This document shows positions 29,008 through 59,536 of a stretch of 64,000 bases of DNA, in pieces (the first letter of the stretch is position 1; every line of letters begins with the position of its first letter). Below the pieces are notes generated by a model, which saw only the letters and a list, made by a program, of their open reading frames with translations, had not been told where the DNA came from and did not search any database. Location of the stretch: positions 32,001 through 96,000 of the IMG/VR virus record IMGVR_UViG_2832702071_000001. One strand, given 5' to 3'. Source of the DNA: a virus (taxonomy: Duplodnaviria; Caudoviricetes). The position numbers were made by a program, and so were the translations under genes.

Positions 29008-29031
29008 ATATTTCTCCTCCTCGATGTTTTC

Positions 29032-29067: not shown

Positions 29068-29129
29068 TATATACATTTATTATTCATTTTTTTATTTTTT
29101 ATAAAATTTTATAAATGTATTTTTTAGAT

Positions 29130-29164
29130 AACAAAAGCGCTACTATTAAAGTAACGCTTTTGTT
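29130..29164 (-). terminator. intrinsic terminator after aimP
   Basis: AACAAAAGCG...CGCTTTTGTT inverted repeat. Confidence 0.8.
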
Positions 29165-29170
29165 GTGTTT

Positions 29171-29359: not shown

Positions 29360-29392
29360 CTTCTCACCCCCTTTCAAAGTTAAGATATGTGT

Positions 29393-30442: not shown

Positions 30443-30591
30443 GCCTAAGTCACCCTCGCTGATATTGGTATGAACCAATAATACCATTTTTGTTTCATAT
30501 TTGCAACGATTTTTTCCCAATATTTTCATTGTTTTTACTACTTATTTCATATATACTTTCCATATACATATAATAGAGGTGGTAAACGGAT

Positions 30592-37900: not shown

Positions 37901-40900
37901 TTACTATAGATTTCCAGCGATTAAAAGTAGTTTTTGTTATATAAAATGATACATTTATTGGATAGATACATTTGTAACTGTTATAAGATTTCTACTTATT
38001 AACATATCCCTAGATACTAATGTAATGGCTTTTTCTTTGGCTGATTCTCTATCCGCATCCCAAATATTTATATAGCCATTATAATTAAAATCCATTCCCC
38101 TAGCGTTCCAGCTAACTATATAATTTCTTCCATCCATTTCTTACGCTCTCCTTATATAAATTATCGCACCAGTTCTTTTACTTCTGATCGCAAACCTTCA
38201 ATTATTCCATCATTCTTTAATTCATATTTATTATTGAATCTATATACATCATATAAGAATATTTGTTCACCATTCGCATTAATTCTAGCCCTTTTAAAAG
38301 GCTTTCTAATTCTTATGTTGCCTTTACTTGGTTGCATAGTTTCAAGCGTGGCGACTTTTTCATTGTCTTTTATAGTAACCGTAAACCATGCGTCAGTGAT
38401 ACAAGATCCATTTTTATATAATTCGTTATGAATGCTATCAAAGAACTCTTTATCAGTCATAATTAACATACTCCTTCTAAGCTATTTTTTAACTATTAGC
38501 TTTATTAATCGCTTTTAGTTCTTCATCTATGATTTTATGCGCATACTCTGTTGGAGCAAATTTAACTCTTTCTAATACCTTTTTGTAAAGTTCTGCCTTA
38601 TTGCTCTGTTTAATTAAATAATCATAATCTTCCTCTTGCGCTCTTAAGACTCCACTATCCTTACTTCCTAAAAAGCTTTTATTCAAAACTGCCACCCCTT
38701 ATATTATAATTCTTTTTAAAATGGTAATTTTATTCTATACTAATTAATTCAAATATATCAATAGTTTCCTCCTTTTAAATAATCCGATAATATGAAAGAA
38801 AATTCTCCTGCTTTATAGTCTCCTGCATAGTTAGCATTAGTGAAAGCATGTTCTAATTTTTTTACTGTTCCTCTTTGGTCAAACACATTTTCATTCTTCA
38901 AAATTGCGTTTACATCGTTTATAATAAACGGTAGATCACTTTCACTAGCTAATTTTACAGATACCCTTTTAATTAATTCAATCGTCATTGTAAATCCCTC
39001 CTAATTTTAAGACAAAAATTATAGATTTAACTTAATATTACAAGTAAATATCTGGTGTATTGTATCCTTTAGTGGCTTGTAAATAATCCTCTTTTGTAAC
39101 CTCTTTACATGAAACAAGATAATCTCTATCTATTAATTGAAAGTGCCCATCTATAACATTATAACCTTCTACCCATTTTTTACCTTTTAATTTTTCGTTT
39201 TGTGTTCCGTTGCATTCATTCTCATAAGCTATAAAATGTAATAGTGCTTCGTTTGATGTAGGATTGACAACTTCACTTTCTCTAAAATAACCTAAAATTT
39301 TTATATGTTCCATTTTACATTCTCCTTTTATTAATTATCCTTTAAAATTAATAATGTTTTTTTCACAATAATTCATTGCTTTTGTCACTGTTGTAAATCC
39401 ATCTTTTATCATTTTTCTATTGTCTCTGTCTAGTGTTATTGAAATACTCTCATCCTTTTCTTTTACAATTGCATAATTTAACATTCTTGTATTCTCCTTT
39501 TCGATTAAAATGTAGTATTTATTGCAACGTGTATTTATAAATCCCTATCCATACTTGTATAGTATTTTTTGAATACCCTATTAATTCTAATCCTCTGAAT
39601 AGATTCCTTTTATCTGTCTTATTGAATTTCTTTACTTTATCCTTATTGATACATGCTAAGTCAAAGTTATGTTTTTTAAATAAGCACAATAATAACTGTT
39701 TCCCTTTTGTATAATCGTTTGATGTCTTTGTCATCTCTTTTCTTACTTGATCTTGCCATTTTGCCATAATTAACAACCTCCATAAGATAAAATTATAGTT
39801 TTAATTGATTAATTGTTATGTTTAACTTAACTTGATTATATACTATGTTGAGTATATAATCAATACTTTTTTATATTAAATTATAATTAATTTTATTAAA
39901 TAGTTAACTCCTACCATTAAAATGAAAAATGAAATGCCATAAAAATAGAAAGCATCACTCCAGCAAATATGATCTTCACCAAAAAAATATTGATTAATCA
40001 ATCTAATAGCTTTCATACTCTACACTCCTTATTACATGAATTGCATATAATCGTAAAATTTTTCATCGACTAAGCTCCTTATTAAATATATTTCTCCAAT
40101 GCTTCACTTGGATTATCGTACTCATTTTCATCTAAGAATAGCCAGTCAGTACTTCTTTTTGAATCACGTTTTGTCGCTCTCCATTTGCCATTAATGTTTA
40201 TTGCTCTATAATCTCCTACAAACCAATTATTTTTAGTTAACATTATCTCATTACCTCCATTCTAATAATTGCATTAGCTTTATTATCAAGTCTAACTGCT
40301 GCACGATATTCAAAGTTAGATAAATAAGTTCTAACATCCTCTGACCAGTAACCGTTATTTTTAATAATTGATACTAATTCATTAACATGTTTCTTTAATA
40401 CTTTTTGTTTCATACTCCACACTCCTTTTCCAGTAAAATTTGAATTTTATGTGATTCTTCATACAATAACTTTTAACTTGATTATATTGTACTACATATA
40501 GTATATAAAATCAATACTTTTTTTATATTAAATTATAATTAATTTACACTTTAATTTCTTTATTAATAATGATACAACCTTGTTTAATAAGTTTATTAAC
40601 TATATCATCAATTTTTATGATTGTTTCCTGCAAGTTGCCTGTCGTGATATCTTTTACGTATCCTTTAGACCATGCCATCACACTATTATCATACCCGTAT
40701 AAATCAATTATTTCTTTGCTTTCTTTATCTTGCACTTCTATATAATATTTTAATTTCATATCGCATATACTCCTTTATAATTTTTCAATACTAACAATAA
40801 GTAATACATATTTCTTCATAGTCATTCAATGCCTCCATATACGTAGAACATTGGCTATATTCTACGTGGTGACCTTCACAATGTATATAATAAGCAACCT

Positions 40901-43931: not shown

Positions 43932-45143
43932 TTAATTAATATTATCATCTAACCAATCATAAAATAATTTTCTCATTCTAAAAGATGGTATGTAAATGTT
44001 AATATTGCCATCATCTCTTACCTTGGATCTCCATATCCATTGTATTAATTCTGAAATAGCAAACATGTCTTCATCAACATCGACCTTTTGTGAGTGAAAG
44101 AATCCCTTAATAACAGGATTGATATATCTATTTACAGTATAAGCTAAGCATGATCTATCTTTGTATTGGTTAGTGGCTCTAATATTCATGGAAATAAACG
44201 ACCTAGAATATCCTCTACCTTTAATTTTATTCTTATAACCTTTGAATGTAGTCCATATGATATCTCCTGATTTAGCCTTAACAATATTTTTAAAGTAATT
44301 TTCAGTGTTGTTCTTTAATACAGCCAATGATTCTTTTCTTTTACTATACCATGATTTAGATAATGAATACTCACTATCACCTATTTTATTTAACTTTCCT
44401 TCGTACACATCAATTAGTTGTTTAAGTTTATCTTTTATTTCTTTATTGTTTGGTTTACCTAATTGTAGCTTAAACTTATCTTTATCTTTAATTACATAAT
44501 AATATTCGTATTCCATATTGTTTAAGTCATAGTAATATTTTTGTATTTGTGCATCAAATAAGTAAGTTAGATTATATACTTCTTTAAATGCTTGAAATAC
44601 TTTTACAGGAAAAGTCCACATAAACATATTATCTTTGTACATATATAATCCACTGTTTCTACACAAATCTTTAACATAGTCATACTGAGTTGATTTATCT
44701 TCCATATCCTCATTCCATGTAATAAGACCCGTATCTTTATCTACTTTAACAAAGTCTAGTTTAATAAGTGATTCTAAATCATGTTCTTTCATATCAACTT
44801 GTTCAACAACATCCATAACCTCATCTAATATAAGTATATAGTTATTAGAATATATTAATTCCATTGTCTCCTCATTTGATCTAGAGAATAGTGAATGTGT
44901 AGATACAATATTTTTATTTTGTCTTAGCAGTTCATGAAAGGCATCTTGTTTAAATAACAATTGACCATCATTCATGTGTACTTTTGGTTCATAGAATGTT
45001 TTCTTTGTTTCCTTCTTTACTCTTTGTACCTCCTCTAAATAAGGTGTAATATAAATATAGCTATGTTCATCATCGTCATTCATCATCTGAATAGACATAG
45101 ATGTTTTACCACTACCCATAATACTGTCTACAATTTTTATCAA
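43932..45143 (-). CDS. YonV-like SF2 helicase-related P-loop NTPase
   Basis: DSIMGSGKTS Walker A, LILDE Walker B, QWIWRS motif; position near yonO. Confidence 0.75.
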   Translation of the reverse strand: MIKIVDSIMGSGKTSMSIQMMNDDDEHSYIYITPYLEEVQRVKKETKKTFYEPKVHMNDGQLLFKQDAFHELLRQNKNIVSTHSLFSRSNEETMELIYSNNYILILDEVMDVVEQVDMKEHDLESLIKLDFVKVDKDTGLITWNEDMEDKSTQYDYVKDLCRNSGLYMYKDNMFMWTFPVKVFQAFKEVYNLTYLFDAQIQKYYYDLNNMEYEYYYVIKDKDKFKLQLGKPNNKEIKDKLKQLIDVYEGKLNKIGDSEYSLSKSWYSKRKESLAVLKNNTENYFKNIVKAKSGDIIWTTFKGYKNKIKGRGYSRSFISMNIRATNQYKDRSCLAYTVNRYINPVIKGFFHSQKVDVDEDMFAISELIQWIWRSKVRDDGNINIYIPSFRMRKLFYDWLDDNIN

Positions 45144-45214
45144 TAACTATCTCTCCTTTCATTTATATTTTTATATTAAATTATAATTATAAGTAAGTCA
45201 AGAAAGGATATCCC

Positions 45215-46252
45215 TTATTTTAGATATCCTAATTCTTTTGCTTTATTGATTATGTCATATTTCAATCCACGTTCTAATTGATCAAATACATCATTCCACT
45301 GATCTTTGTTTAATTCAATTTTTGTATGATCTAATTCTTCACCCATGTATAATGTTGGCTGCGTCCCCATACTTTCTCTTTGTTTAATATAATTGTAAGT
45401 TGTTTCAATATGTTCATGACCAAGATGTTCTTTTGCTACGATGATGTTATTACCTGATGCTTTGTATGCTTCCCAGCCACTTGTACCCCTAATACTATGG
45501 AATGCGATTTTTCTATCCTCAGGTACTTCGAATACTTCTTTTAACATATTTAGTGTTCTATCTATTGTCATGTAAGACATTTTGAGGATACTTTCACTTT
45601 GATTGTTTGTTTCTTTCATGTTTAACAATAACTCTGCATCTTCATCCTTCAATGATATTTTTATCTTTTTGCCTTTTAGTCTTGAAGTTAATACCCAAGT
45701 ATCATCTTCTCTTTTAAGATCTTTATATTTCAAATTAACTAGAGCTTGTTTTCTCAATCCTGTCATCCTAGCTAAGTGAAGCATAATAGCCTTGTTGTCT
45801 CCATTAGCAATATTATTAGATGGATCTTTTAAATAATTCATCCACACTGTTATCTCATCCCATGATAAATATCCATATGATTCACTGTCTGTTTCTTTTA
45901 GTTTTTTCATCTTAAGTTCGTTATGATCAATATTATATATATGAGATCCCTCAAATTTGATTTTGCTCAAGTGAACAAAAAATGAATATATCCCACTCAT
46001 TTTTGCATTAACAGTTTTTGCTGCACTTTTTCTTCTAATTTTTTCTCTATACTTTTTAACATCAATATAACTAATATCATTAATATCTTTTACACTTAAA
46101 TGGTGTATTTCTTTATCTGGGTGTTTCCATTCTAAAAAATCTTTTATACTTCTATTGTAAAGTCGTTTTGTATTCTCTGATTCTAAGCCATCTGTGAATG
46201 ATTGAATGTCGTCATAGACATAATGATCTTTGATTTTTAATACGCTATTCAT
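45215..46252 (-). CDS. tyrosine recombinase with intact catalytic residues
   Basis: SAM-like N-domain; TGLR (Arg), LKG (Lys), FHSIR (HxxR), LGH, TTYNY (Tyr). Confidence 0.9.
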   Translation of the reverse strand: MNSVLKIKDHYVYDDIQSFTDGLESENTKRLYNRSIKDFLEWKHPDKEIHHLSVKDINDISYIDVKKYREKIRRKSAAKTVNAKMSGIYSFFVHLSKIKFEGSHIYNIDHNELKMKKLKETDSESYGYLSWDEITVWMNYLKDPSNNIANGDNKAIMLHLARMTGLRKQALVNLKYKDLKREDDTWVLTSRLKGKKIKISLKDEDAELLLNMKETNNQSESILKMSYMTIDRTLNMLKEVFEVPEDRKIAFHSIRGTSGWEAYKASGNNIIVAKEHLGHEHIETTYNYIKQRESMGTQPTLYMGEELDHTKIELNKDQWNDVFDQLERGLKYDIINKAKELGYLK

Positions 46253-46515
46253 TTCAATTCTCCTTTGGTTTATTTTTGTTAGGATAATTTAATTATAACA
46301 CCATTAAATAAAAAGTCAATAAGTAATTATAATTTAATATATTTAATTATTTCTGATTCTTTCATATAGAGGTTTTATCTATTTTACTTACAAGAACCCT
46401 AGCGACAAATAAAAACATCTCACAGAAAGCCTCATTTATTCTGAGGGGCATTCCAAACATTCTATGCTAATTCTTAGGTTTATATAATTAATTATAATTT
46501 AATATAGATAAAGGG

Positions 46516-46544
46516 TTGACATATTTTGAACTACCCATTACAAT
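46516..46544 (+). promoter_or_regulatory. SigA promoter TTGACA-N17-TACAAT for the yonO operon, bracketed by two 18-bp motifs
   Basis: Motif copies at 46489 and 46557 flank the promoter. Confidence 0.75.
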
Positions 46545-46600
46545 GAAGTTAAGATTTAATTATAATTTAATATAAATGTTGAAATGGAGGTAATATAGAA

Positions 46601-46762
46601 TTGAAATTTAAAGACCCACAAGACGAGATCAATCAGAGACTAGAAAGCTTCATTACCGATGCAGGTGTTAGAACAAGTGGTATTTGTTTTTACATAGATG
46701 AGGAAGAATGGCTATATTCTATTGATCTTTACGACTACATAACTGCAAATGAAAATGACTAA
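46601..46762 (+). CDS. small hypothetical protein (53 aa) upstream of yonO
   Basis: GGAGGT RBS, TTG start, open frame to TAA; not in the ORF track. Confidence 0.55.
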   Translation: MKFKDPQDEINQRLESFITDAGVRTSGICFYIDEEEWLYSIDLYDYITANEND

Positions 46763-46779
46763 GCTGGGAGGATTGATTT

Positions 46780-49308
46780 TTGGTAAAATACCTACAAAAC
46801 CAAATACATATGTATTCTTTGGATACAGCGTGCTTTTATAATCAGAGTGAAAAATCCGTAAGTGACAGAATATTTAAGTGTAGAATACATAAAAAAAACG
46901 TGGCAAACAATAGCAATCTGAGTGACAAAAGGATTAACGACCACATTCACTACATAAATAAAAGAATTGAAAAATTAAAAAATATATTAAATGATACATT
47001 GAATCGAAATAAAGATACAAGAGTTTTAGACCCATCATCATTAAAAGACACAAGGCTTATATCTGTTTTTGAATCAAATCTAACTAGAACACTTGATATA
47101 AAAATTGATGATATAACTGAGGAACTGTTTGTTGTAAGAGTTTATTATTTTCAAGTTTTGTATGATCTTATTAAAAATGGTTTTTATTATAACGGCGAAA
47201 AATACATATATTTTAGCTCTTCTGCTGGTCAAATACGCACAAAGAAAGGTGTATGGATTAAAGAATCTTCTTGGTTAAAACATCAGAAATCTTTAACATG
47301 TGGTTTAACTGTAGATGAGATAAACAAAAAAGGCGGAAGCAATATCAATAAATATTTAGCGTATATTGCTTTAACAAATAGTGCATCACAAAGAATGAAA
47401 AACTTTGATATTAATAAAACAATAGTTGTCAACGACTTAGAAACCAATGTAAATGAGTACGTTGATTATATTGACCGTGATACATATGAAATAACTAGAA
47501 CTAAAATGGATATTCCTATCGAACACACTGACGGTGTGGGGATGATACTCCCCTCCCTTTCTAATAAATCTTTTATGGTGAGGCTACCTTTTGTGAAAGG
47601 ATTGCTTGTTCCCTTTGACTTTAGAAAGTTTATTAAAGAAAAGAATGGATCACCTATAGTTGAAGATATTTATGGGAATAAGATTGATGTTATTAAAGAG
47701 GATATCCAGATAATCTTTACAAAATCTCAATTTAAAATGCACAAATATTATGATGGATGGGGAGATTATAAAGAAAGATTTAAAAAATATAATTGCCAAG
47801 CGTCTATGTTGAATGAAGAGGAAGATTACTTTAGCGAAGCCAAGCTAAATTATCAGATGTTACAAACACTGACATCTATAACAGATGAAGAACTAGAAGA
47901 AATTTGTGAATCAACCAATAATGACATTAGAGAAATTGGCTCAGACAAAGAAACAATGCTGCGTGTATTGGGGGCAACAAAAGAAAATTCACGAAAGAAT
48001 TATTTTCAAGAAGCTTTATTAATCTATCCTGAACTATTAAACGATACGCATGCACGTAAAGTTATAAAAGATGTTAAGAAGAGTCTTGTTAAACACGCTA
48101 AAGCTGGAAGAATAAACGTTGACTCTAAGTATTCTTTTGTTTCACCCGATTTTTATGCGTTTTGTGAATATTTATTTCTAGGCAATGAGAACCCATCAGG
48201 ATTACTTAGGAATGGACAAATTTATTTTAATCAATATGATACGGGCGATATAGATTTGCTGAGATCACCCCACTTATACAGGGAACATGCTGTAAGAAAC
48301 AATGTAACATCAAGTGAAATGAATAAATGGTTTGTTACAAGTAATATCTATGTCAGTGTACACGATGCGATAAGCAAGATACTCCAATTGGATTGGGATG
48401 GTGATAAATTACTCGCAGTTAATGACCAAACAATAATCAACGTTGCGAAAAGAGATATGGAGGATATTGTACCACTTTATTATAAAATGGAGAAAGCTCC
48501 TCCGAGTGAGATTTGCTATGAAAACATTTATAATAGCCTGATCCTTGCTTTCAAAGCAAATATCGGTGTGGTATCAAATGACATAACAAAAATTTGGAAC
48601 TCTGGAAAGGTCGATCTTGATGTAATTAAGTGGAAAACGATGGAGAATAATTTTATTATCGACTATGCTAAAACATTATTTATGCCAACTAGACCAAATG
48701 ATGTTGATAAAAAAATTAAAGATTATTCTAATGTTAAGCTCCCCCACTTTTTCATACATGCGAAAGATAAAGATAAAGCTAATGTCAATGAAGTTAATAA
48801 CAGTGTCGTGAACAGACTAGATTACATAATTGAAAATAAACCAATCCAGTTTAGAGTTGTTGCTGGCAGCTTTAATTATTGGAATTTAACAAGTAAGAAA
48901 AAAAGAGATTTAGATGGTCATATTATAGGTGAATATGAAAAAATTATGTTTTCTAAAAAATCCATCATATCTAATATGCTCAGTGACAACATGGAAGAAA
49001 GAATTGTTTACTTTAACAACTATTTAAGGCAGAGACTTTTAGATATCAACCCAAACATAAATGATGTTGTAGACTCTTTAGTTCATTATCTCTACAAAAC
49101 GACAAAATACAGAATGAGGTCACAACTTTGGGATTCATTCGGTGATATTTTGGTAAAGAATCTTTCGATTAATTTAAAAAATACAAAACAATGTGAAGAA
49201 TGTGGTGCTAGGTTTAAGTATAGTAATAATAAAGCTAAATATTGTCCAAAATGCGCAAAAAAAATTAAGAACGAGCAAAACAAACGCTATTACTATTTAG
49301 GAAAATAG
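46780..49308 (+). CDS. yonO: YonO-like single-subunit DNA-dependent RNA polymerase
   Basis: 842 aa; DWDGD catalytic DxDGD, HTDGVG, LRSPHL, KGLL motifs; C-terminal CxxC..CxxC; heads the late region. Confidence 0.9.
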   Translation: MVKYLQNQIHMYSLDTACFYNQSEKSVSDRIFKCRIHKKNVANNSNLSDKRINDHIHYINKRIEKLKNILNDTLNRNKDTRVLDPSSLKDTRLISVFESNLTRTLDIKIDDITEELFVVRVYYFQVLYDLIKNGFYYNGEKYIYFSSSAGQIRTKKGVWIKESSWLKHQKSLTCGLTVDEINKKGGSNINKYLAYIALTNSASQRMKNFDINKTIVVNDLETNVNEYVDYIDRDTYEITRTKMDIPIEHTDGVGMILPSLSNKSFMVRLPFVKGLLVPFDFRKFIKEKNGSPIVEDIYGNKIDVIKEDIQIIFTKSQFKMHKYYDGWGDYKERFKKYNCQASMLNEEEDYFSEAKLNYQMLQTLTSITDEELEEICESTNNDIREIGSDKETMLRVLGATKENSRKNYFQEALLIYPELLNDTHARKVIKDVKKSLVKHAKAGRINVDSKYSFVSPDFYAFCEYLFLGNENPSGLLRNGQIYFNQYDTGDIDLLRSPHLYREHAVRNNVTSSEMNKWFVTSNIYVSVHDAISKILQLDWDGDKLLAVNDQTIINVAKRDMEDIVPLYYKMEKAPPSEICYENIYNSLILAFKANIGVVSNDITKIWNSGKVDLDVIKWKTMENNFIIDYAKTLFMPTRPNDVDKKIKDYSNVKLPHFFIHAKDKDKANVNEVNNSVVNRLDYIIENKPIQFRVVAGSFNYWNLTSKKKRDLDGHIIGEYEKIMFSKKSIISNMLSDNMEERIVYFNNYLRQRLLDINPNINDVVDSLVHYLYKTTKYRMRSQLWDSFGDILVKNLSINLKNTKQCEECGARFKYSNNKAKYCPKCAKKIKNEQNKRYYYLGK

Positions 49309-49414: not shown

Positions 49415-49515
49415 TAAGTTAAATTCTCAATGATGCACTATAGGAAAGACAGAATAAAATAGCTCTTTTATTTTTTTCAATAATTATAATTTAATATAAA
49501 TATATAAAATTAACT

Positions 49516-50187
49516 ATGGAACAAAAGGAGATGCTTATGCCACTACCAAAAGACAATATGCTTTTCGGATACGCAGAAAAGCTCACAGGAGAACAAAGAG
49601 AGTACGTTAACGCAATTTTTGATAAACAACTTACTATCACCAATAGTAAAAGTGGTACAGGAAAGACGACGCTAGCCGTCTCATGTGCGAAAGTCATAGG
49701 GAAACCTCTTCTTTATGTGTTCTCACCCTGCGAAGAAGATAAGCTCGGATATACACCCGGAGATATTGAAGAGAAGGAAGAAAAGTATATACAGCCTTTA
49801 AAAGACGCACTTATAGAGATTGGTGAAATGCCTGACAAGGTAATTATGTCAAAAGAAAATATTGATAATGTGAGGCAGAGTAATTGTTGGGTTGAGGCGA
49901 AATCGCATGTTTTTGCTAGAGGGACAAACATAAAAGACAGAACGGTGATTATAGATGAGGCTCAAAACTTTCTAAAATCAGACTTGAAGAAGCTGCTCAC
50001 AAGAATCCATGACTCGTGTACGGTTATCATGATTGGTCACACTGGTCAAATTGATTTGCCTAATCCTAATTTAAGTGGGTTTTCTTCATATATTGAACAC
50101 TACAGAAAAAAAGATTATTGCAAGTTAGTAAATTTAAGTTGGAACTGGCGTGGTCGTTTGGCTAACGACGCAGATGAATTGATTTAA
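49516..50187 (+). CDS. phoH: PhoH family ATPase
   Basis: SGTGKT, LGYTPGD, RGTN, IIDEAQN and GHTGQID motifs. Confidence 0.9.
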   Translation: MEQKEMLMPLPKDNMLFGYAEKLTGEQREYVNAIFDKQLTITNSKSGTGKTTLAVSCAKVIGKPLLYVFSPCEEDKLGYTPGDIEEKEEKYIQPLKDALIEIGEMPDKVIMSKENIDNVRQSNCWVEAKSHVFARGTNIKDRTVIIDEAQNFLKSDLKKLLTRIHDSCTVIMIGHTGQIDLPNPNLSGFSSYIEHYRKKDYCKLVNLSWNWRGRLANDADELI

Positions 50188-50229
50188 TAAAATAACAAGA
50201 ATTTGGAATGAAAAGGAGAATAAAAAGAT

Positions 50230-50424
50230 ATGGCTGATTATAATCATACTATTTCATTTAAAAAATCACAGTTAGATCTAGAAGAGGGTACGATCACTGA
50301 ATTTAAGAGAGACTCAACTCTTACTTATCGTCTACTTGATGAGTTGAAAAAATTCGAAGGTGAAGGTCGTCTGATTGACTTAACAATCAAAGAAGTCACA
50401 GAGTTAGAACCTTCTGAAGAATAA
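50230..50424 (+). CDS. YonK-like protein
   Basis: 64 aa, TITE.K......Y.L...L pattern; synteny with SPbeta. Confidence 0.65.
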   Translation: MADYNHTISFKKSQLDLEEGTITEFKRDSTLTYRLLDELKKFEGEGRLIDLTIKEVTELEPSEE

Positions 50425-50437
50425 GGCTGGTGATAAA

Positions 50438-51694
50438 TTGATATTACCAGAAAACTTAAAGAGACGGGAAAATGAATCTGACATCAAGTATAAAGTAAGG
50501 CTTTGTGTCGCCAAATTAAATAAAGACATAGATTTGGATTGGGTTGAGATAAATCAAATATTAGGCTTGAATCAATCGGGAGATCACACTAGAAAATTGG
50601 CTTATGGGTATAAAGAAATTTATGACGACAATCCCGATTTATTTGAAAAAGAGATAGTTGAGGATGACAAAGGTGACTTAAGATACAAAGAAACCATAGA
50701 AATAATGAGTGACGGGTCTCATAAGAGTGATAAATTGCTAAGGATGTCTGACGAGCAATCTAAAAGTGTAGAATTTTTGTTAGAAGCCCATGGATACGAT
50801 CCTTCAGAATGGGAACTAACGAACGCTAAAAATAACATTTGGAATGTCTATTCTAAACAAGATGGGATACAAACATTATATTCTAGTAAGATAACAGCAA
50901 AACCATCAGTAACGGGGTTCAATGTAGATGATTTTTTAGAGAAAGCCAATAACAAGATTGTTCCCATACATATTAAAAATAAGATTGGTGATGGAACAGA
51001 TCTATTAGAATTACCTTTATACGATATGCATTTTGGTGTGAATGATTACGAATACTATAGACCTGTGAGAGATGCTATTTTAGAAAAAATTAAAAGTAAA
51101 AGATGGGATAAAATCTTTTTTATTATTGGGCAAGACCTTCTGCACAATAATAACTTTAAAGGCGAGACGTCAAGTGGTACACCAATTGAAAAAGTTGACA
51201 TGGATAAGGCGTGGGAAGACGCATTTAAATTTTACTGCGAATTAATTAACGAAGCACAGAATAATTCAAATAGTGTTGATTGTAGTTACTCAATTGCAAA
51301 TCATGATGATTCAATGGCTTGGGCATTTGTTAAGTGTTTAGAAATTAAATTCCCAGATGTAAACTTTGATACAAGTAAAAAGGTACGAAAGGCATATGTA
51401 TGGAATGGTGTATTCATCGGGTATGCACACGGTCACAAAGGTGCTAATAGGCTACACGAAAATTTCATTTCTGACTTCGGTAAGCAAATGGCTCTTGCTG
51501 ATATCGTAGAAATCCACAGTGGACATTTACATACAGAGAAAGCCAAAGATAAATTTGGTGTTTTAGTTAGAACATTGTCCACAAAAGGAAAGACTGATTC
51601 GTGGCACGAAGACAATGGGTTTGTTGGGGCAAACAAGCGATTTCAAGTTTTCGAGTATTCCCCTACTGACTTGAAAGCTATTCATTATATTTAA
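50438..51694 (+). CDS. metallophosphoesterase-domain protein (YonJ-like)
   Basis: DMHFG, GQDLLH, ANHD, AHGH and GHLH motifs. Confidence 0.8.
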   Translation: MILPENLKRRENESDIKYKVRLCVAKLNKDIDLDWVEINQILGLNQSGDHTRKLAYGYKEIYDDNPDLFEKEIVEDDKGDLRYKETIEIMSDGSHKSDKLLRMSDEQSKSVEFLLEAHGYDPSEWELTNAKNNIWNVYSKQDGIQTLYSSKITAKPSVTGFNVDDFLEKANNKIVPIHIKNKIGDGTDLLELPLYDMHFGVNDYEYYRPVRDAILEKIKSKRWDKIFFIIGQDLLHNNNFKGETSSGTPIEKVDMDKAWEDAFKFYCELINEAQNNSNSVDCSYSIANHDDSMAWAFVKCLEIKFPDVNFDTSKKVRKAYVWNGVFIGYAHGHKGANRLHENFISDFGKQMALADIVEIHSGHLHTEKAKDKFGVLVRTLSTKGKTDSWHEDNGFVGANKRFQVFEYSPTDLKAIHYI

Positions 51695-51712
51695 TACATA
51701 ATTAATTGGTAA

Positions 51713-51753
51713 GATGAGAAATAGTTTGTACGTCCCCTCCCTTATTTCTCATC
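51713..51753 (+). other. hairpin with C-rich loop (CCCCTCCC)
   Basis: GATGAGAAATAG...TTATTTCTCATC stem. Confidence 0.5.
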
Positions 51754-51774
51754 CAATGCCACCACAAATTAAGG

Positions 51775-52047
51775 ATGGTGGTTCTAGTGGAATATGAATA
51801 TGAAGATGTGCGATCTAATGTAATCATTGTACCTACTGATACAGAAAGTATTGGCGATATTGTCAATGAGTATGCTCTAATGGGGCTAGATTGTAAGAAC
51901 AAAGAAGAGTTAGAAGATTTATTTAAAATGTTTGCAGACGAAATGATATTGATGATTGATAAACATTACACAACTGAAATCGCATTGAATATGGTTGAAA
52001 GATTAAAAGAGATAGAAATTTTAAGAGAAGATTATAGAGATTTATAA
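51775..52047 (+). CDS. hypothetical protein
   Basis: 90-aa acidic ORF (true start perhaps a few codons downstream). Confidence 0.6.
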   Translation: MVVLVEYEYEDVRSNVIIVPTDTESIGDIVNEYALMGLDCKNKEELEDLFKMFADEMILMIDKHYTTEIALNMVERLKEIEILREDYRDL

Positions 52048-52099
52048 AATCTTAATGAGTTTTGAGATGGTCAAGATTCATTAAATATTGTTTTTTGTA

Positions 52100-52380
52100 T
52101 AAAAGAGATGTAAGTTGCTTTCTACTGAAACTCTCTCCGTCCATGTAGCGACTTCCCAAACACCACGGGTCGTAACGCAAGCATCGGGTTGTCAACGGAA
52201 AATATAATTTAATTAATGATATGTAAGACTGTCGGATAATCGAGAGCTTTGTTGCCGAGAAATTGTCGGCTCTATGGCGAAATCTATTCCGAAGTAGGTT
52301 CGCAACCTTGCCGATAGTAGCTTTGTTCAGTCGTTTTGAACGTCCTTCAAGGTGTAACAGTTGGGTGGCTACCAACTTAA
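52100..52380 (+). ncRNA. candidate structured non-coding RNA upstream of the terminase genes
   Basis: GC-enriched intergenic tract with nested stems (CTGTCGG/CCGATAG, GCCGA/TCGGC, GCGA-ATCTAT/GTAGGT-TCGC, GTTCA/TGAAC, AGTTGG/CCAACT), then a long hairpin and T-run at 52378-52440. Confidence 0.45.
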
Positions 52381-52466
52381 AGATCTTTTTAAGGTGTCTA
52401 TATAACCTATAGGCATCTAATAAAAGATCTTTTTTATTTTAAATCAGAATTAAAGGAGGTTATGTT

Positions 52467-53399
52467 ATGGCAAAAAATCCAAGCAAAAATGTCACAACAA
52501 TAAAGTGTAGTTGTTGTGGGAAGGAAAAGAAAATTACCGAGTTTTACTCTTCTCACTCTCCTATTCACCAATATTACAACAAACTACCCGTTTGTAAAGA
52601 TTGTGTCTTTTCTATGGTAGACGAAACAGATATTAGATCTGTGCAAGATATGCTTAGAATGATCGACAAACCTTTTTATCACTCATTATGGGAGTCATCT
52701 ATTGAAGAATCTAGTAAGACAGGGCGTTCATTGTTCGGTACGTATATGAAGAACGTTGTAATGGGTCAGTATAAAGGCGACACTTGGAACGATAGTGATT
52801 TTAACGATATCCCGACCGATAACAAAAACGGTGAATATGACAGCACAAACCACCCAAATTCATCTGATTTTAATAGGGATTATTTAATGAATAAATGGGG
52901 TTTTGGATATACTGACGAAGAATATGACTACTTTGAAAGAAAATATAATATTTTGAAGAATAATTACCAAGAGAAGACCAGTATGCATACTGAGGCGTTA
53001 CTAACCTACATAAGATATCGAGTAAAAGAAGAGATAGCTACGGCACATGGGGATAATAAAGCAGCAAAAGATTGGGGTACTTTAGCCTCAAATGCTGCTG
53101 ATAAAGCAAAAATAAATCCATCACAGTTGTCACAAGCTGACCTATCTGATGGTCTAGATACATTTGGGCAGTTAATTCGTGCAGTTGAAACATCTGAAGA
53201 TATCATACCTATATTGCCTCAGTTTAAACAAAAAGCCCATGACAAAGTAGATTTTGCATTATGGTGCTACGTTAATTATATAAGAGATATGCAAGGGAAA
53301 GATCTTGCCGACTATCAAGATATCTACGCATTTTATGAAGATCGTAAAAAAGAATATGAAGAAGAGTTTGATTTTTCCCAAGGAGTTAGTGATAATTAA
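52467..53399 (+). CDS. putative terminase small subunit/packaging protein (Zn-finger N-terminus)
   Basis: CSCC and CKDC; translationally coupled to the large terminase. Confidence 0.55.
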   Translation: MAKNPSKNVTTIKCSCCGKEKKITEFYSSHSPIHQYYNKLPVCKDCVFSMVDETDIRSVQDMLRMIDKPFYHSLWESSIEESSKTGRSLFGTYMKNVVMGQYKGDTWNDSDFNDIPTDNKNGEYDSTNHPNSSDFNRDYLMNKWGFGYTDEEYDYFERKYNILKNNYQEKTSMHTEALLTYIRYRVKEEIATAHGDNKAAKDWGTLASNAADKAKINPSQLSQADLSDGLDTFGQLIRAVETSEDIIPILPQFKQKAHDKVDFALWCYVNYIRDMQGKDLADYQDIYAFYEDRKKEYEEEFDFSQGVSDN

Positions 53400-55114
53400 T
53401 GGCTCACAACTTTCAAACGAAATCTGCAAAATACACTAAAAATAGATATGGGATATACGAATCTGAGTTTGCTAATTCCATAGATTCTAGAGGTGTTAAA
53501 GAGGAAGATAATTTCACTAAGAATTTAAACAAGTATAAAGACTTTGTTAGTTGGTGTCGGTTCTATCCAGACTTGTTTTATGATTTAATCACACCAGAAA
53601 CTGGCGGGATAAGATTAGACTTAGACCAAAGGCTTTTGTTGCGATCTTTATCTAGATTTGTTGCTACTTATGGTGTATTCCCTCGTGGTTATGGGAAAAC
53701 AATGATTGAATTAATGGGTATGTATCATACAGCTATATGTTTCCCTGATATAGAACTCAGTATGACGGCTCAAACAAGAGAGAATGCTTCGAAGCTGGTT
53801 GATGAAAAACATAGAGAAATAATTAAAAATTACCCCTTAATGAAAAATGAGATTACTAAGTTTTCAGCGACAAAAGATTCGGTTGAGATCATTTTTACTT
53901 CTGGTGGAAGAATAGATATATTGGCTAACCAACAGTCAACTAAGGGTGCTCGTAGAAAACGTTTAAATATAGAAGAAGCTGCGCAGCTCAACTCTCAACT
54001 TTTTTATGATGTACTAGAACCGGTTGTCAACGTACCAAGAAGAACAGTTGGTAGAGAGGCGCTAGTTAATCCTGAAGAATTACATGGACAAATTAATTTC
54101 TTTACTACTAGTTGGTTTAGGGGTAGTGACGAATATGAAAGAAACCTGAAAATGATTGATGATATGGTTAACTTAAAAGGGACTATAGTGATCGGTTCAG
54201 ATTGGCAACTAGCAGCTAGTTGTGGTCGTGGAGAGCCTAAAGCTAAGATATTAGACAAGAAAGCAAAATCATCTCCCACTTTCTTTGCTATGAACTATGA
54301 GTCTAAATGGGTTGGGTCTATTGATGGTTCTTTAGTAGATATAAACAAAGTGATGTCACTGAGGGTTGTTTCATCACCTGAATACAAGAGTGATAATAAG
54401 AGTGAATACATATTATCAATGGACGTAGCCAGGTCAGATAGCATGTCAAACAATCAGAGTTCCATTGCGGTTCTCAAGTTAAATAGGTCAAAGAGTGGAA
54501 AGATAAAAAAAGTTAGGGCAGTTAATATTATAAACCTTCCCAACGGATTAAACTTTGCTTCTCAGGCAATGGAACTAAAAAAAGTCAGAAAAGCCTTTAA
54601 TGCAAAAATAGTTGTTATCGATGGCAACGGATTGGGAACAGCTATAATAGATGAAGTGATGAAAGACTCTTTTGATCCACAGACGGGCGAAGAGCTAGGG
54701 TGTTGGGATACTATTAATACAGATAGAGATCCTGAATCATCAGATTCAGAAAAAATAGTTTATGACCTTCATGCTCAGGGAATTAATAGCGATATTATTG
54801 TTAATTTCATTGACTACATAGAAAGTGAAAAGATACTACTGCTTGAGAAAACGAATGATTCTGGGTACGACATAAATGATGATAACGCAGTCAAAAATAT
54901 AATTCCCTTCCTAGAAACAGATAAATTCATTGAAGAAGTGGCAAATTTAAAACTAAAAAAATTACAAAACGGAAAATATAATGTTGAGCGTGTTGTAAGT
55001 AAAATAGACAAAGATAGGTATTCCGCTGTTGCTTACGGGTTGTGGTATATCAAAAACTATGAGGATAATACAGAGAGTGAGTCAGATTATGATTTTGGCT
55101 TCTTCTATAATTAA
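53399..55114 (+). CDS. terminase large subunit (YonF-like)
   Basis: PRGYGKT Walker A, IEEA Walker B, SMDVAR and DGNGLG nuclease motifs, KDRYSA. Confidence 0.9.
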   Translation: MAHNFQTKSAKYTKNRYGIYESEFANSIDSRGVKEEDNFTKNLNKYKDFVSWCRFYPDLFYDLITPETGGIRLDLDQRLLLRSLSRFVATYGVFPRGYGKTMIELMGMYHTAICFPDIELSMTAQTRENASKLVDEKHREIIKNYPLMKNEITKFSATKDSVEIIFTSGGRIDILANQQSTKGARRKRLNIEEAAQLNSQLFYDVLEPVVNVPRRTVGREALVNPEELHGQINFFTTSWFRGSDEYERNLKMIDDMVNLKGTIVIGSDWQLAASCGRGEPKAKILDKKAKSSPTFFAMNYESKWVGSIDGSLVDINKVMSLRVVSSPEYKSDNKSEYILSMDVARSDSMSNNQSSIAVLKLNRSKSGKIKKVRAVNIINLPNGLNFASQAMELKKVRKAFNAKIVVIDGNGLGTAIIDEVMKDSFDPQTGEELGCWDTINTDRDPESSDSEKIVYDLHAQGINSDIIVNFIDYIESEKILLLEKTNDSGYDINDDNAVKNIIPFLETDKFIEEVANLKLKKLQNGKYNVERVVSKIDKDRYSAVAYGLWYIKNYEDNTESESDYDFGFFYN

Positions 55115-55140
55115 AATTTAATATAAAAGGAGGTGGAATA

Positions 55141-56667
55141 TTGGATATCTTAGAAAATGAAACCACATATGAATTCAACACATCTATTGGTTTCGAAAAT
55201 GTGGTTTCTCCTCTTAATTACAACACCATTAATATAGACAGTATTAAAAAGTGGTTAAAAAACCCTATGTATTATAATCAAGAAATTAGAAGCGCCTCTA
55301 GGGTTTTGTACAATAAAAATGGTATTTATGCCAACGTTGTCGACTATATGGTATCCCTCCCTACCCTTGACAGAGTTGTTTATGGTCGAAATAGGAAAAA
55401 CAGAGATTATCAGACGAACAAAGATAAATTTATCAGTTCTTTAGATAGCTTAAAAGACAAGATTTTAATTCGTGATAATTTGAGAAAGTTATCAATCGAT
55501 GCAGTCGCTTTTTATTATTTCCAATATGATGAGAACGCATCTTTTGATAACTTTATGAGTGATTATGATAGATCGCAAACAGAAATAAATAAATATGTGA
55601 ATTGTAATTTATTCCCCCTCCCCACTGACTATTGTGAAATTGTTGGGTTAAAAAACTCTTCTTATGTGGTTGCATTTGATTTGTCTTACTTCGACAATTT
55701 TACTGGCAAAGGTAAGTCTAAAAAGTTAATGAAGTATCCAAAGGAAATTAGGGAAGGATATAAACAATTTAGAAAATCTCCTAATAATCAATGGATAGTT
55801 CTTGATAATGACAAAACGGTTGCGACTAAAGCCAGATCTAATATAGATGAAAAATGGGGACGACCATTAGGTTTAGCTAGTTTCATAGACATTCTATATG
55901 ATGAATACTACACAGATACAAAACGAAAAATACTTGATGATGTAAATAGTACAATTGTTTATCAAACGTTTCCTGAAGGTAAAGAAAAGGGAAAGTCTAG
56001 CTTAACACAAAAGCAACAAAAAGAGCAGCACGATAATATCAAGCAGGCTTTATTCTCTAGGTCAAATGTCAAAGGGGTCAACTTCTTTTCTGTGGCGAGT
56101 GGTACTAAGCTTGAAAAGATGGATACAGATGTCGAATTTTTAAAAGTTAATGCTGAAGACGAATTAATTAAACGAATTACTACATCATTAGGGTTTGCTT
56201 CTAGTTTATTGAATGCAGATTCAGGTACTTCTAGTTCGCAAAAGGCAAACTTAGATCTAATTACTGCTGAGATAATGAGTTGGATTGAACAGATAAAATC
56301 AGAGTTAAATAAAGTAATAAATAAAAACATTATTAAAAATAACTCAAACTATATAGAAGTTGATTACCTCCCTATTACTCATGCAAACAGAAAAGAAATG
56401 GTTAGGCATATGAAAGATCTGTTTCTTAACGCAGGTGGATCTGTTCAGGCGTGGATAAGTTCAACAGGCTTCAATCCAGAGACGTATCTAGCTTTAATGG
56501 ATGAGGAAAGAAGTTTAAACTTTGACGAAAAATACCCACCACACAAAACTAGTTATACGACAAGTGGAAAAGATGAATCAACTGAAGCTAAAAAACCTAT
56601 TAATAATGATTCGGATAACCCGAACACCATTAAAAATAAGAATACTGGAGCTAACCCTATTGAATAA
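55141..56667 (+). CDS. portal protein (YonE-like)
   Basis: 508 aa directly after the terminase; WGRP and SLGF motifs. Confidence 0.75.
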   Translation: MDILENETTYEFNTSIGFENVVSPLNYNTINIDSIKKWLKNPMYYNQEIRSASRVLYNKNGIYANVVDYMVSLPTLDRVVYGRNRKNRDYQTNKDKFISSLDSLKDKILIRDNLRKLSIDAVAFYYFQYDENASFDNFMSDYDRSQTEINKYVNCNLFPLPTDYCEIVGLKNSSYVVAFDLSYFDNFTGKGKSKKLMKYPKEIREGYKQFRKSPNNQWIVLDNDKTVATKARSNIDEKWGRPLGLASFIDILYDEYYTDTKRKILDDVNSTIVYQTFPEGKEKGKSSLTQKQQKEQHDNIKQALFSRSNVKGVNFFSVASGTKLEKMDTDVEFLKVNAEDELIKRITTSLGFASSLLNADSGTSSSQKANLDLITAEIMSWIEQIKSELNKVINKNIIKNNSNYIEVDYLPITHANRKEMVRHMKDLFLNAGGSVQAWISSTGFNPETYLALMDEERSLNFDEKYPPHKTSYTTSGKDESTEAKKPINNDSDNPNTIKNKNTGANPIE

Positions 56668-56700
56668 CATCTTTTCTTTATTGTAAGGAGGTGATAGTAA

Positions 56701-57819
56701 TTGTTTATAGAAATATCTGAAACGAACAGAAGAACTGGCAGGACACCTATTAAAATAGCAATGCATGAAATACATAAAAACATCAACGAAACTAATAAAA
56801 ATGGTATTCATTGGGATGAAACTTATACCAAACAAAACATGTCTAGCGCTTCTGGCGCTCCATTTGTCGTTGAATTTTTAGATGAAGATATGGATATGGT
56901 TGGTGGTCATGGTGATTTGAGGGTTGATGAAGATGGTAAGCCTTATTTCGAAAATTCTACTGTAGTAGGCACAATCGAGCAAGCTACTGTTGAGACAATC
57001 AACGTCAATGGTTCAGACACTCTAGTATTAATGTCTTCTGGTTATTTATACGAACAGAGATACCCTAAATTCGTTAATTGGTTAAGAGATATTAGTAAAA
57101 CACAATCGATAAGAGGATCTGTAGAGATTGGCGGTAAGCACCCTAATAATAACATATCTTATGATGGTGAATATAGCAGAGAATATAGAGTACCAAAAGA
57201 GTTTGACTATACAGGTATGGCTATCCTGTTTACAGAAACACCAGCAGATGACAACGCTATTCTAGTAGAGGTTAACCAGTTAAATAAATCAAAGGAGGAA
57301 AAAACATTGTCTGAAACTAATAATGAGAAGTTAGAAGAAAAGATCAACAAAATTAATGAGTTGAACAATGAATTAAACACAAAATCAACCAAGATCGACG
57401 AATTGCAAGTTGAGGTTAATACCAAACAAGAGGAATTAAACAGTGCAATTCAAGAATTAAAAGAAAAGAGAGAATCTTTGGAGTCACAAGAACAAGAGTT
57501 GAATGAACTTCGTGAATTTAAGAAAGAAGTTACTCAAAAGCAATTAATTTCTAAATTAGAAGCCGAATTGTCATCCTACTCTGATGAAGAAAAAAGCATC
57601 GCCAAAGATAAGATTGAAAAATTCTCTGAAGACCCAACTGAAGACAAAATTAAGAATATCGTTAACGAGATTAATTCAGAGATTGCTAAAAATCTTATTG
57701 AAAAACGGAAAGATAAAAAGCAAAAAGAGGAAAAAATTGAAAGTAACTCAATCAATGACCTATTTGGTGTTGTTGATGATATATCTAATGATGTTAAAAG
57801 TATTGAGGACTTATATTAA
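56701..57819 (+). CDS. prohead protease/scaffold (YonD-like)
   Basis: Protease-like N-domain (GGHG, GSVEI, TGMAIL) plus long coiled-coil C-terminus. Confidence 0.7.
   Translation: MFIEISETNRRTGRTPIKIAMHEIHKNINETNKNGIHWDETYTKQNMSSASGAPFVVEFLDEDMDMVGGHGDLRVDEDGKPYFENSTVVGTIEQATVETINVNGSDTLVLMSSGYLYEQRYPKFVNWLRDISKTQSIRGSVEIGGKHPNNNISYDGEYSREYRVPKEFDYTGMAILFTETPADDNAILVEVNQLNKSKEEKTLSETNNEKLEEKINKINELNNELNTKSTKIDELQVEVNTKQEELNSAIQELKEKRESLESQEQELNELREFKKEVTQKQLISKLEAELSSYSDEEKSIAKDKIEKFSEDPTEDKIKNIVNEINSEIAKNLIEKRKDKKQKEEKIESNSINDLFGVVDDISNDVKSIEDLY
57307..57819 (+). CDS. nested in-frame scaffolding protein
   Basis: AAGGAGG at 57292-57298 followed by an in-frame TTG at 57307, at the start of the coiled coil. 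Confidence 0.55.
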   Translation: MSETNNEKLEEKINKINELNNELNTKSTKIDELQVEVNTKQEELNSAIQELKEKRESLESQEQELNELREFKKEVTQKQLISKLEAELSSYSDEEKSIAKDKIEKFSEDPTEDKIKNIVNEINSEIAKNLIEKRKDKKQKEEKIESNSINDLFGVVDDISNDVKSIEDLY

Positions 57820-57871
57820 TAAATACTACTCTTATATAATTAAAATTTAAAATAAATGGAGGAATTAAGTA

Positions 57872-58348
57872 ATGTTTAATTTCGGAACTATTGGTGCTTA
57901 TAAACAAGTACGAAATAACCCACGTTGTAAAGCAACAGCAGAAACTAAGAATGGTCAAGTTGTAGTATTGGATGAAGTGAATAAAACCGCATCATTTCCG
58001 GCAGATGCCGCAGCAGCAAAGGTAGAAAATCTTTATATTGTAAATAATGCAGATGATAAGCCAGAAACTTGGACTACTAAAGATTTTGTTGTTAAAGAAG
58101 GAGAATTTTTGCGAAACTTCAGACTTGCAGATTTAGTAGATATGCCAGTTTTATTATCACATGATGTTATTTCTACTACTTACACAGACGTTGCCGCAGG
58201 AGATATTTTAGTCGCAGAAGCTGCTACAGGTAATTGGGTTAAAGCTGATGGAACAACCATTGTTGCTACTGATTACCCAATTACATTGGAAGTAGTTAGT
58301 AAAAATACATTCGGAGATCAAGGCGTCGAAGCAATCGTTCGTGCCTAA
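57872..58348 (+). CDS. head decoration/minor capsid protein (YonC-like)
   Basis: Between scaffold and capsid; Ala/Val/Thr-rich beta protein. Confidence 0.55.
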   Translation: MFNFGTIGAYKQVRNNPRCKATAETKNGQVVVLDEVNKTASFPADAAAAKVENLYIVNNADDKPETWTTKDFVVKEGEFLRNFRLADLVDMPVLLSHDVISTTYTDVAAGDILVAEAATGNWVKADGTTIVATDYPITLEVVSKNTFGDQGVEAIVRA

Positions 58349-58372
58349 TAGATAATTAATAGGAGGATTATA

Positions 58373-59452: not shown

Positions 59453-59481
59453 TTTTTTAATAATTATAATTTAATATAAGT

Positions 59482-59507
59482 GCAGAGTGGGGTCTCCCCT
59501 CCTCTGC
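59482..59507 (+). terminator. hairpin after the capsid gene
   Basis: GCAGAG-TGGGG...CCCCT-CCTCTGC stem. Confidence 0.6.
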
Positions 59508-59536
59508 TTATTTAGGAATAAAAGGAGAGTATTGAG

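Follow-up and report, generated by a model that had tools for sequence, protein, structure and literature searches.

An intact YopP/SroD-family tyrosine recombinase of a distant SPbeta-like prophage and its plausible link to a lineage-wide N6 palindrome

SPbeta-like phages serve as the model for arbitrium signalling. Although two proteins with a recombinase fold have attracted interest in these phages, little is understood of what YopP/SroD does. SroD reportedly acts as an auxiliary repressor of the lytic cycle, a role said to come from work of Brady et al. in 2023 (Cell Host Microbe). YopP is presented in PMC8612738 as a XerC-like gene in the six-gene operon yopM-yopR, which also holds the master repressor; by gene order, as the fourth of the six operon genes, YopP is sroD. 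The combination sroDEF serves as an SPbeta-like signature (bioRxiv 10.1101/2025.11.23.689978), and microarray data show that yopP is transcribed in the dormant prophage (bioRxiv 10.1101/2021.11.22.469490). MrpR/YopR/SroF (PDB 8A0A), from the same phage group and with the same superfamily fold, provides the precedent for recombinase-fold proteins acting on many sites across a phage genome. SroF lacks the catalytic tyrosine, and MrpR keeps three of the seven core residues (PMC10516654). Here, we describe a relative of YopP encoded on the minus strand at 45215-46252 of a 64,000-nucleotide stretch (hereafter the window), which covers bases 32001-96000 of the 115,935-bp provirus record IMGVR_UViG_2832702071_000001 (31.6% G+C). 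Its product is predicted to be an intact tyrosine recombinase, and phages carrying its clade are rich in the strict palindrome TAAAA-N6-TTTTA, so that a link between the two is plausible, although correlative. The gene and the regions of its product are as follows.

45215-46252, minus strand: predicted YopP/SroD-family tyrosine recombinase gene, an open reading frame (ORF) of 345 amino acids with an ATG start
46259-46263, minus strand: Shine-Dalgarno sequence GGAGA, seen on inspection six bases before the recombinase ATG
Residues ~12-95 of the product: N-terminal core-binding region
Residues ~130-292 of the product: catalytic region
Residues 316-340 of the product: two-helix C-terminal tail

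Pfam assigned Phage_integrase (PF00589; 1.9e-10, 41.2 bits against a cut-off of 27.1) and the SAM-like N-domain Phage_int_SAM_1 (PF02899; 2.4e-5, above the cut-off) to the product, and PHROGs assigned phrog_1, integrase (1.5e-25). The initial annotation had called the gene an intact tyrosine recombinase with a full R-K-HxxR-H-Y set; the domain assignments bear this out, and all six named residues (R167, K193, H252, R255, H279 and Y288), assigned through motif and alignment, are present. The alignment held 72 sequences, namely the query and 71 near-full-length hits out of the first 78 representative hits, seven fragments or length outliers (P0005, P0007, P0009, P0034, P0040, P0070 and P0078) being left out and hits P0081-P0152 lying outside it. 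In its columns, R167 and H252 were invariant (72/72 each), K193 was kept in 71/72, H279 in 69/72 and Y288 in 68/72, and position 255 was Arg in 28 and Lys in 44. The C-terminal tail past the tyrosine was kept among the closest relatives. The seven-residue core of tyrosine recombinases (R, D/E, K, H, R, H/W, Y) includes an acidic residue three places past the first Arg (PMC10516654, Table 3), and the recombinase scores 6/7 on it, with A170 at the D/E position.

The AlphaFold (AF2) model of the recombinase (pLDDT 94.3, pTM 0.84) gave 82 matches at E <= 0.001 in a structure comparison with the PDB and showed a two-domain core-binding plus catalytic fold. The best solved matches were XerA (best E-value), XerH on difH (5jjv; TMq 0.60, root-mean-square deviation 4.4), Cre/Tre (TMq 0.59-0.63), lambda Int and the Tn1549 integrase, and the model resembles solved tyrosine recombinases in their DNA-clamping form. 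IntI stood at rank 39, and MrpR was not among the 43 fold matches listed. A sequence search of the PDB with the recombinase returned a single weak match, HP1 integrase (E 0.48). Judged by modelled fold and residues, the gene product is an intact, conserved, simple two-domain (Xer/Cre-like) tyrosine recombinase.

Among the ORFs of SPBc2, the best match was YopP, with 21% identity over residues 2-308 (BLASTP E 2e-13). The two proteins are similar in length (358 amino acids for YopP, 345 here) and carry the same two Pfam domains; they differ in that position 255 is Arg here and Lys in YopP, and in that the recombinase gene lies outside a repressor operon, in a provirus without a YopQ-like gene. 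Several relatives match both proteins, and because the chain of relatives that links them keeps the YopP-YopQ-YopR order, the recombinase is considered orthologous to YopP. On these alignments, it is a distant homologue within the YopP/SroD family of SPbeta-like phages. When 1.84 billion representatives were searched exhaustively with HMMER, 497 relatives were found at E <= 1e-3, and since only 7 of them fell below 1e-30, the recombinase is, as far as such scores tell, a divergent member of a known, poorly understood family. A word-indexed protein search returned just the recombinase itself and one relative at 44%.

In the phage collection, 55 records carried a relative, all below 60% identity, and the carriers included the lactococcal 949-group, Tsamsa-like Bacillus phages, Geobacillus phage E3 and Psychrobacillus phage Perkons. 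The relative is the first gene in the lactococcal 949-group, adjoining a RecD-like helicase, and in the Tsamsa-like phages it adjoins replication-relaxation and VirD4-like genes, HU and PhoH. In E3 (GP148-146) and Perkons (ORF64-66), a DndB/ParB-like gene and then a further integrase-like gene follow the recombinase, matching the order YopP-YopQ-YopR. Both phages are far from SPbeta and are without annotated arbitrium genes in the stretch examined; the YopP-like trio may be a module that predates the link to arbitrium. Among ten loci from IMG/VR, the trio was found in five (L006, L009, L016, L019 and L023), and the gene was divergent from YonO in three (L005, L007 and L014) and from an HU/PhoH block in two (L010 and L024). 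In the YopP/SroD family of SPbeta-like phages, the operon yopP-yopQ-yopR (sroD-E-F) is located downstream of aimR-aimP. The recombinase gene of the window is detached from any such operon and divergent from yonO, and since L005, L007 and L014 share this position, the placement is a recurrent alternative rather than an accident. YopP/SroD is thus a core gene of SPbeta-like phages and of related large siphophages (Tsamsa-like, E3, Perkons and lactococcal 949-like).

The second component is the palindrome, whose copies in the window are distributed as follows.

1243-40449: 30 of the window's 33 exact TAAAA-N6-TTTTA palindromes, between early genes; candidate target sites
49455-49470, 52421-52436 and 60601-60616 (span 49455-60616): the other three palindromes, in the rightward arm

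These 33 copies compare with 1.8 expected and a maximum of 5 in 100 shuffles. The whole provirus has 45 palindromes at N6 against 0-4 at spacings N2-N10, and the excess is specific to the 6-bp centre. SPBc2 (NC_001884) has 34 palindromes against ~2 expected and 0-3 at other spacings, and Goe11 also has 34. Over 156 sites from six phages, the consensus gains one base on each side (A in 73%), giving A-TAAAA-N6-TTTTA-T, with a weak T/A preference at the first and last positions of the centre. All 33 centres in the window differ, as chance would also give. Forty of the 45 provirus palindromes are intergenic, although ~89% of the DNA is coding. In many of them the TAA is the stop codon of the upstream gene and the palindrome ends 12-31 nt before the next start codon, and most flank single small genes including their ribosome-binding site. 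The copies nearest to the recombinase gene lie at 40434-40449 and from 49455. Perkons (MT325768) additionally has 10 copies of TGAAA-N6-TTTCA (mirror control 2), a variant arm closer to the difH type. A tie of the palindromes to the YonO polymerase was considered and rejected, because YonO is not common to palindrome-bearing phages, being absent from the proteins shared with 949, PBC2, E3 and Perkons. A limited literature search found no description of the SPbeta N6 palindromes or of the 949 recombinase, and as far as that search shows, the lineage-wide link between the YopP clade and the N6 palindromes, SPBc2 included, is new.

The co-occurrence of clade and palindromes was assessed by counting TAAAA-N6-TTTTA and a mirror control over whole records, L013, L008, L022 and L025 lying outside the count. 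Sites and controls (site/control) were distributed as follows.

Named phages with the clade: own provirus 45/6; SPBc2 34/2; Goe11 34/1; FADO 33/1
Named phages with the clade: E3 30/7; PBC2 23/1; vB_BcoS-136 23/6; Thrax2 19/2
Named phages with the clade: Perkons 17/2; Staphylococcus SPbeta-like 17/8; PMBT69 8/1; 949 7/3
Phages without the clade: SPP1 0/2; SPO1 0/0; K 4/4; A511 0/1; 0305phi8-36 0/0; phi105 0/0
Phages without the clade: sk1 1/0; Tuc2009 0/0; phiEF24C 1/2; AR9 9/10; G 15/18
Phages with only a YomM-like recombinase: Ldl1 4/3; S-CoN_Ph4 10/6; vipetofem 7/3; MT835469 7/5

In total, sites and controls numbered 290/40 in the 12 named clade phages and 263/44 in 17 IMG/VR records, compared with 58/54 in 16 phages without the clade (Mann-Whitney p 8e-6 for named clade versus non-clade phages, uncorrected for relatedness). 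Ten of the 12 named clade phages had 17-45 palindromes, and the two lactococcal phages had 7-8. The four YomM-like-only phages showed little or no excess, and PBC4, with a single ambiguous recombinase (2.6e-34), had 0/0. The co-occurrence test proposed with the initial annotation thus gave a 6- to 7-fold excess over the mirror control with the clade and the control level without it, a result confounded by shared lineage.

The window also contains the regulatory genes of the prophage, and a BLASTP comparison of all provirus ORFs with all SPBc2 ORFs identified a distant SPbeta-like phage, whose polymerase, ribonucleotide reductase, terminase and tail genes likewise have matches in SPBc2. The genes that bear on the role of the recombinase are these.

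27388-28485, minus strand: MrpR-like gene (Pfam MrpR_N_CB 3.8e-10), downstream of the AimR-like gene
29393-30529, minus strand: AimR-like arbitrium receptor gene (Pfam AimR 4.1e-32)

Both belong to a compact lysogeny block at 26139-30529 on the minus strand, with AimR-like, 137-amino-acid, MrpR-like, YopI-like and double-helix-turn-helix Xre-like ORFs. Unlike the SPbeta sro operon, the block 26139-30529 has no YopQ/ParB-like or YopP-like gene in between, and no YopQ/ParB-like gene was found in the provirus. A distance of 17 kb separates the recombinase gene from its AimR-like and MrpR-like genes. Of the candidates, the MrpR-like gene is the likelier (master) repressor of the prophage. At the left end of the provirus, a large serine recombinase of 504 amino acids (Resolvase, Recombinase and Zn ribbon domains) is 30% identical to SPBc2 SprA/YokA and fills the integrase role; therefore, the recombinase at 45215-46252 is not the prophage integrase, as the initial annotation had already supposed. 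With an integrase and a likely master repressor in place, the recombinase would be neither. An MrpR-type repressor identity was rejected on its own account: the protein shows no similarity to YopR/MrpR or to the provirus MrpR-like protein, has no MrpR_N_CB or MrpR_C_cat domain and keeps its catalytic residues, 6/7 of the core against 3/7 in MrpR. Outside the window, the tail-gene block contains another intact tyrosine recombinase, which is YomM-like (provirus bases 96598-97605, plus strand). It is 60% identical to its counterparts in SPBc2, E3 and Perkons and 31% to those in 949 and PBC2, and keeps R, K, HxxK/R, H and Y. Relatives of it were present in 192 phage records, among them Staphylococcus and Enterococcus phages of 85-90 kb. 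No significant similarity was found between the recombinase and YomM.

The immediate surroundings of the gene comprise two neighbours, several promoter-like sites and copies of a repeated 17-mer.

46292-46319, minus strand: sigma-A-type promoter of the recombinase gene, TTGACT, 16-nt spacer, TG-extended TATAAT (11/12 matches in a consensus scan)
46325-46341, plus strand: exact 17-mer AATTATAATTTAATATA, 5 bases beyond the -35 of the recombinase promoter on the opposite strand
46490-46574, plus strand: two exact 17-mers (46490-46506 and 46558-46574) bracketing a TTGACA-17-TACAAT promoter at 46516-46544
45172-45188, minus strand: 17-mer preceded by TTGACT at exactly 7 nt, forming the YonV-like gene's promoter
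43932-45143, minus strand: YonV-like gene, downstream neighbour, 49% identical to SPBc2 YonV (BLASTP E 1.5e-143)
46780-49308, plus strand: YonO-like single-chain RNA polymerase gene, divergent neighbour, 54% identical to SPBc2 YonO
1211-1227, 6339-6355, 17302-17318 and 45172-45188, minus strand: example 17-mers in the window
46325-46341, 49482-49498, 59462-59478 and 63454-63470, plus strand: example 17-mers in the window

The yonV-like and yonO neighbours named in the initial annotation were recovered, and no att-like junction flanks the recombinase gene, in agreement with the absence noted there. Its description of the promoter also held for the coordinates, the TTGACT and TG-TATAAT elements and the adjacent motif, but the spacer is 16 nt, not 17. 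The recombinase promoter and the yonO-operon promoter at 46516-46544, which serves a 53-amino-acid ORF and the YonO-like operon, were the best promoter-like sites in 45100-46800. Because the YonV-like gene has its own promoter, the recombinase gene seems to form a transcription unit by itself, flanked by two promoters. The 17-mer was also considered as a possible promoter for YonO; that promoter is left undefined in PMC5467207, and two of the 17-mers flank the sigma-A promoter of the yonO operon itself. The recombinase gene and the yonO operon diverge from a 350-bp region that includes ~150 bp (46342-46489) without an ORF, with a terminator-like hairpin on the minus strand at 46446-46430; this stretch might give rise to a small transcript or serve as a binding region. 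An Rfam scan of 45000-46900 gave no match at E <= 0.1.

The 17-mer occurs 31 times in the provirus at no more than one mismatch, and its orientation always equals the direction of transcription, on the minus strand left of the recombinase gene and on the plus strand right of it. Eleven of the 31 copies have TTGACA/T exactly 7 nt upstream, which yields a -35/17/-10 promoter with TAATAT as the -10, and among the remaining copies some immediately precede a ribosome-binding site or a further promoter. The 17-mer, which contains TTATA-N6-TATAA in the same 5-6-5 geometry as TAAAA-N6-TTTTA, is probably the core of the phage's promoters, and by analogy with SPBRE it perhaps doubles as the operator of the MrpR-like protein. 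That it is an operator of the recombinase acting in the manner of MrpR was rejected together with the MrpR-type identity. The -10 region of the recombinase promoter has only a degenerate 17-mer copy (inverted repeat I5), so the gene may escape the control linked to the 17-mer.

We tentatively favour a reading in which the recombinase acts on the N6 palindromes, resolving or circularising phage DNA or exchanging it in register; we consider this possible, somewhat short of an even chance. It starts from the observed fold, catalytic residues, family membership and co-occurrence, and would extend them to binding, cleavage and a biological outcome. A strong sigma-A promoter of its own would drive the recombinase gene, with which the leftward early arm would begin. 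Two subunits would bind the inverted TAAAA arms of the intergenic A-TAAAA-N6-TTTTA-T palindromes, and Y288 would cut and rejoin the DNA at either border of the 6-bp centre. Tyrosine recombinases need matching centres for strand exchange, and because the centres vary between sites, a productive reaction would have to pair one site with its counterpart on a second genome copy. Such same-site exchange would resolve or circularise replicated or terminally redundant DNA without deleting genes inside one genome; alternatively, it would let two related phages trade DNA in register. Replication in SPbeta-like phages yields concatemers, and packaging is by the headful mechanism with circular permutation, a mode that has been likened to P1 (bioRxiv 10.1101/2021.11.22.469490); resolution or circularisation would therefore be a natural job for such an enzyme.

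This idea can be taken further, to a distributed lox system in which dozens of palindromes, each with its own 6-bp centre, lie in a headful-packaged, circularly permuted genome, and an early-made Cre-like recombinase circularises incoming DNA or resolves concatemer junctions without RecA. We regard this extended version as quite improbable. If it were true, any terminally redundant stretch would carry the same palindrome twice, and different centres could not recombine, leaving the genome unscrambled while allowing in-register exchange with related phages.

Known systems offer partial parallels to action on the palindromes. As the recombinase would do with its palindromes, XerH/difH and XerS/difSL pair one protein with a nearly palindromic site, and their inner arms, GAAAA...TTTTC around a central region, resemble those found here (difH left arm AGTTATGAAAA; difSL arms TTTCCGAAAA and TTTTCTTGAAA; arm sequences from PMC5357621); XerH on difH is also the best structural match in a DNA-bound form. 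In these systems, each chromosome has a single site, located next to the gene, with arms of 10-11 bp and under FtsK control; the provirus, by contrast, has 45 sites, none near the gene, with 5-6 conserved bases per arm. Cre, which acts on loxP of P1, is likewise a simple tyrosine recombinase other than an integrase, encoded by a phage that packages by the headful mechanism; P1 differs in its single loxP with 13-bp arms and an 8-bp centre, and Cre has 11-13% sequence identity to the recombinase.

Several observations weigh against action on the palindromes. No palindrome lies within 3 kb of the recombinase gene, and only 5-6 bp per arm are conserved, which is short for tyrosine recombinases. 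In the protein, the acidic core residue three places past R167 is replaced by Ala, as in 42/72 of the aligned sequences, and the second Arg is Lys in 44/72. The SPbeta homologue YopP lies in a repressor operon. Among the carriers, the Staphylococcus SPbeta-like phage reaches just 17/8, and phage 949 has the gene (profile E 2.5e-106) but lacks an N6-specific excess, with 7 copies at N6 against 1-4 at other spacings; a search of 949 over arms of 5-6 and spacings of 3-9 found no other strong palindrome, the best being ATTAT-N3-ATAAT (10 versus 1). Moreover, the six fully compared phages share the polymerase, helicase, RecJ-like, reductase, terminase, tape-measure and tail genes and both recombinase-like genes. 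Because the clade carriers form a single related lineage, the association does not count as independent evidence and could reflect a single historical event; it may belong to descent, to the YomM-like protein, which is common to all six and much better conserved than the recombinase, or to another shared protein. The contrast with the YomM-like-only phages favours the YopP clade, but those phages are more distant overall.

An alternative that we consider rather unlikely gives the protein a regulatory role comparable to that of SPbeta SroD/YopP: it would be an auxiliary repressor or an early-late switch factor, with a recombinase fold that serves DNA binding only and catalytic residues kept for that binding. 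The position of its best SPBc2 match, in an operon with the master repressor (PMC8612738), and the transcription of yopP in the dormant prophage (bioRxiv 10.1101/2021.11.22.469490) are consistent with such a role, as are the conservation of the trio in five IMG/VR loci, E3 and Perkons and the location of the gene at the divergent early/YonO control region, under a promoter with just a degenerate 17-mer. MrpR/SroF, moreover, sets a precedent for a recombinase fold turned pure repressor. Unlike MrpR/SroF, however, the family keeps six catalytic residues nearly invariant, and this provirus is without a YopQ/ParB-like partner. Phages of the 949 group are virulent dairy phages. Retention of the gene in phage 949 also speaks against this role, because a virulent phage would have no use for lysogenic repression.

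A Cre/lox- or Xer/dif-like resolvase, serving genome multimers at one dedicated site with which the palindromes have nothing to do, is improbable. The best fold matches (XerH, XerA and Cre), the retention of the gene in phage 949 with almost no array, and its contact with the RecD-like helicase in lactococcal phages and with replication-relaxation and VirD4-like genes in Tsamsa-like phages would all suit a resolvase, as would the concatemer replication and headful packaging of SPbeta-like phages (bioRxiv 10.1101/2021.11.22.469490). However, a scan of 45100-46700 for lox- or dif-like repeats with a 6-8 bp centre returned just 17-mer copies and short AT palindromes, with no dif-type candidate next to the gene and no lox-like site with ~13-bp arms in the same interval, whereas the genes of single-recombinase Xer systems usually adjoin their site (PMC5357621).

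It is decidedly improbable that the palindromes are served by another factor of the lineage, such as the YomM-like protein alone or a XerC/XerD-style pair of it with the recombinase, or that they act in RNA upstream of ribosome-binding sites. The YomM-like protein has the required distribution among the six fully compared phages and the residues R, K, HxxK/R, H and Y, but the four phages with only a YomM-like gene had little or no excess and PBC4 had none. An RNA role would fit the frequent overlap with the upstream TAA stop and the 12-31 nt to the next start, but a stem of five A-U pairs is very weak, and the arms are fixed in sequence rather than co-varying.

Finally, the palindromes were considered as points of gene exchange. 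PeSL elements of T4-type phages consist of an early promoter and a stem-loop flanking shuffled genes. The likeness lies in repeated promoter cores and short palindromes that punctuate the accessory early genes of a large phage; PeSL elements differ in that they are thought to use homologous recombination over longer repeats, whereas the 10-12 bases shared here are too few. Breakpoints were taken from one pair, SPBc2 and Goe11, as the 54 ends of blastn homology blocks with a minimum of 300 bp and 84% identity. Eight of the 54 lay within 30 bp of an SPBc2 palindrome, compared with 0.8 for random positions, and five homology blocks ended exactly at a palindrome present in both phages. Nevertheless, in this pair palindromes occurred at 8/42 boundary breakpoints versus 27/204 gene boundaries (Fisher p 0.16), and palindromes as preferred mosaic joints, no better than other gene boundaries, were rejected. 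Like IntI/attC, the locus would combine a recombinase, many sites and single-gene units; unlike attC sites, which are folded single strands with extrahelical bases, the palindromes are strict 16-bp duplex palindromes, none of them adjoining the recombinase gene, and no such folded sites were seen here. The headline of the initial annotation, an integron-like cassette recombinase for which the palindromes would be points of excision and insertion of single accessory genes, is extremely improbable and finds no support: although most palindromes flank single small genes with a ribosome-binding site and five SPBc2/Goe11 blocks end at common palindromes, breakpoints are not enriched there beyond gene boundaries, the differing centres would block exchange between different sites, no attI/Pc arrangement adjoins the gene as it does intI, and IntI is just the 39th fold match.

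YopP/SroD thus keeps its catalytic residues, is a core gene well beyond SPbeta, and has carriers rich in a strict N6 palindrome. If YopP binds or cuts A-TAAAA-N6-TTTTA-T, this would be a new use of site-specific recombination in large phages; if it does not, an abundant, conserved phage DNA signal would be left without a reader.

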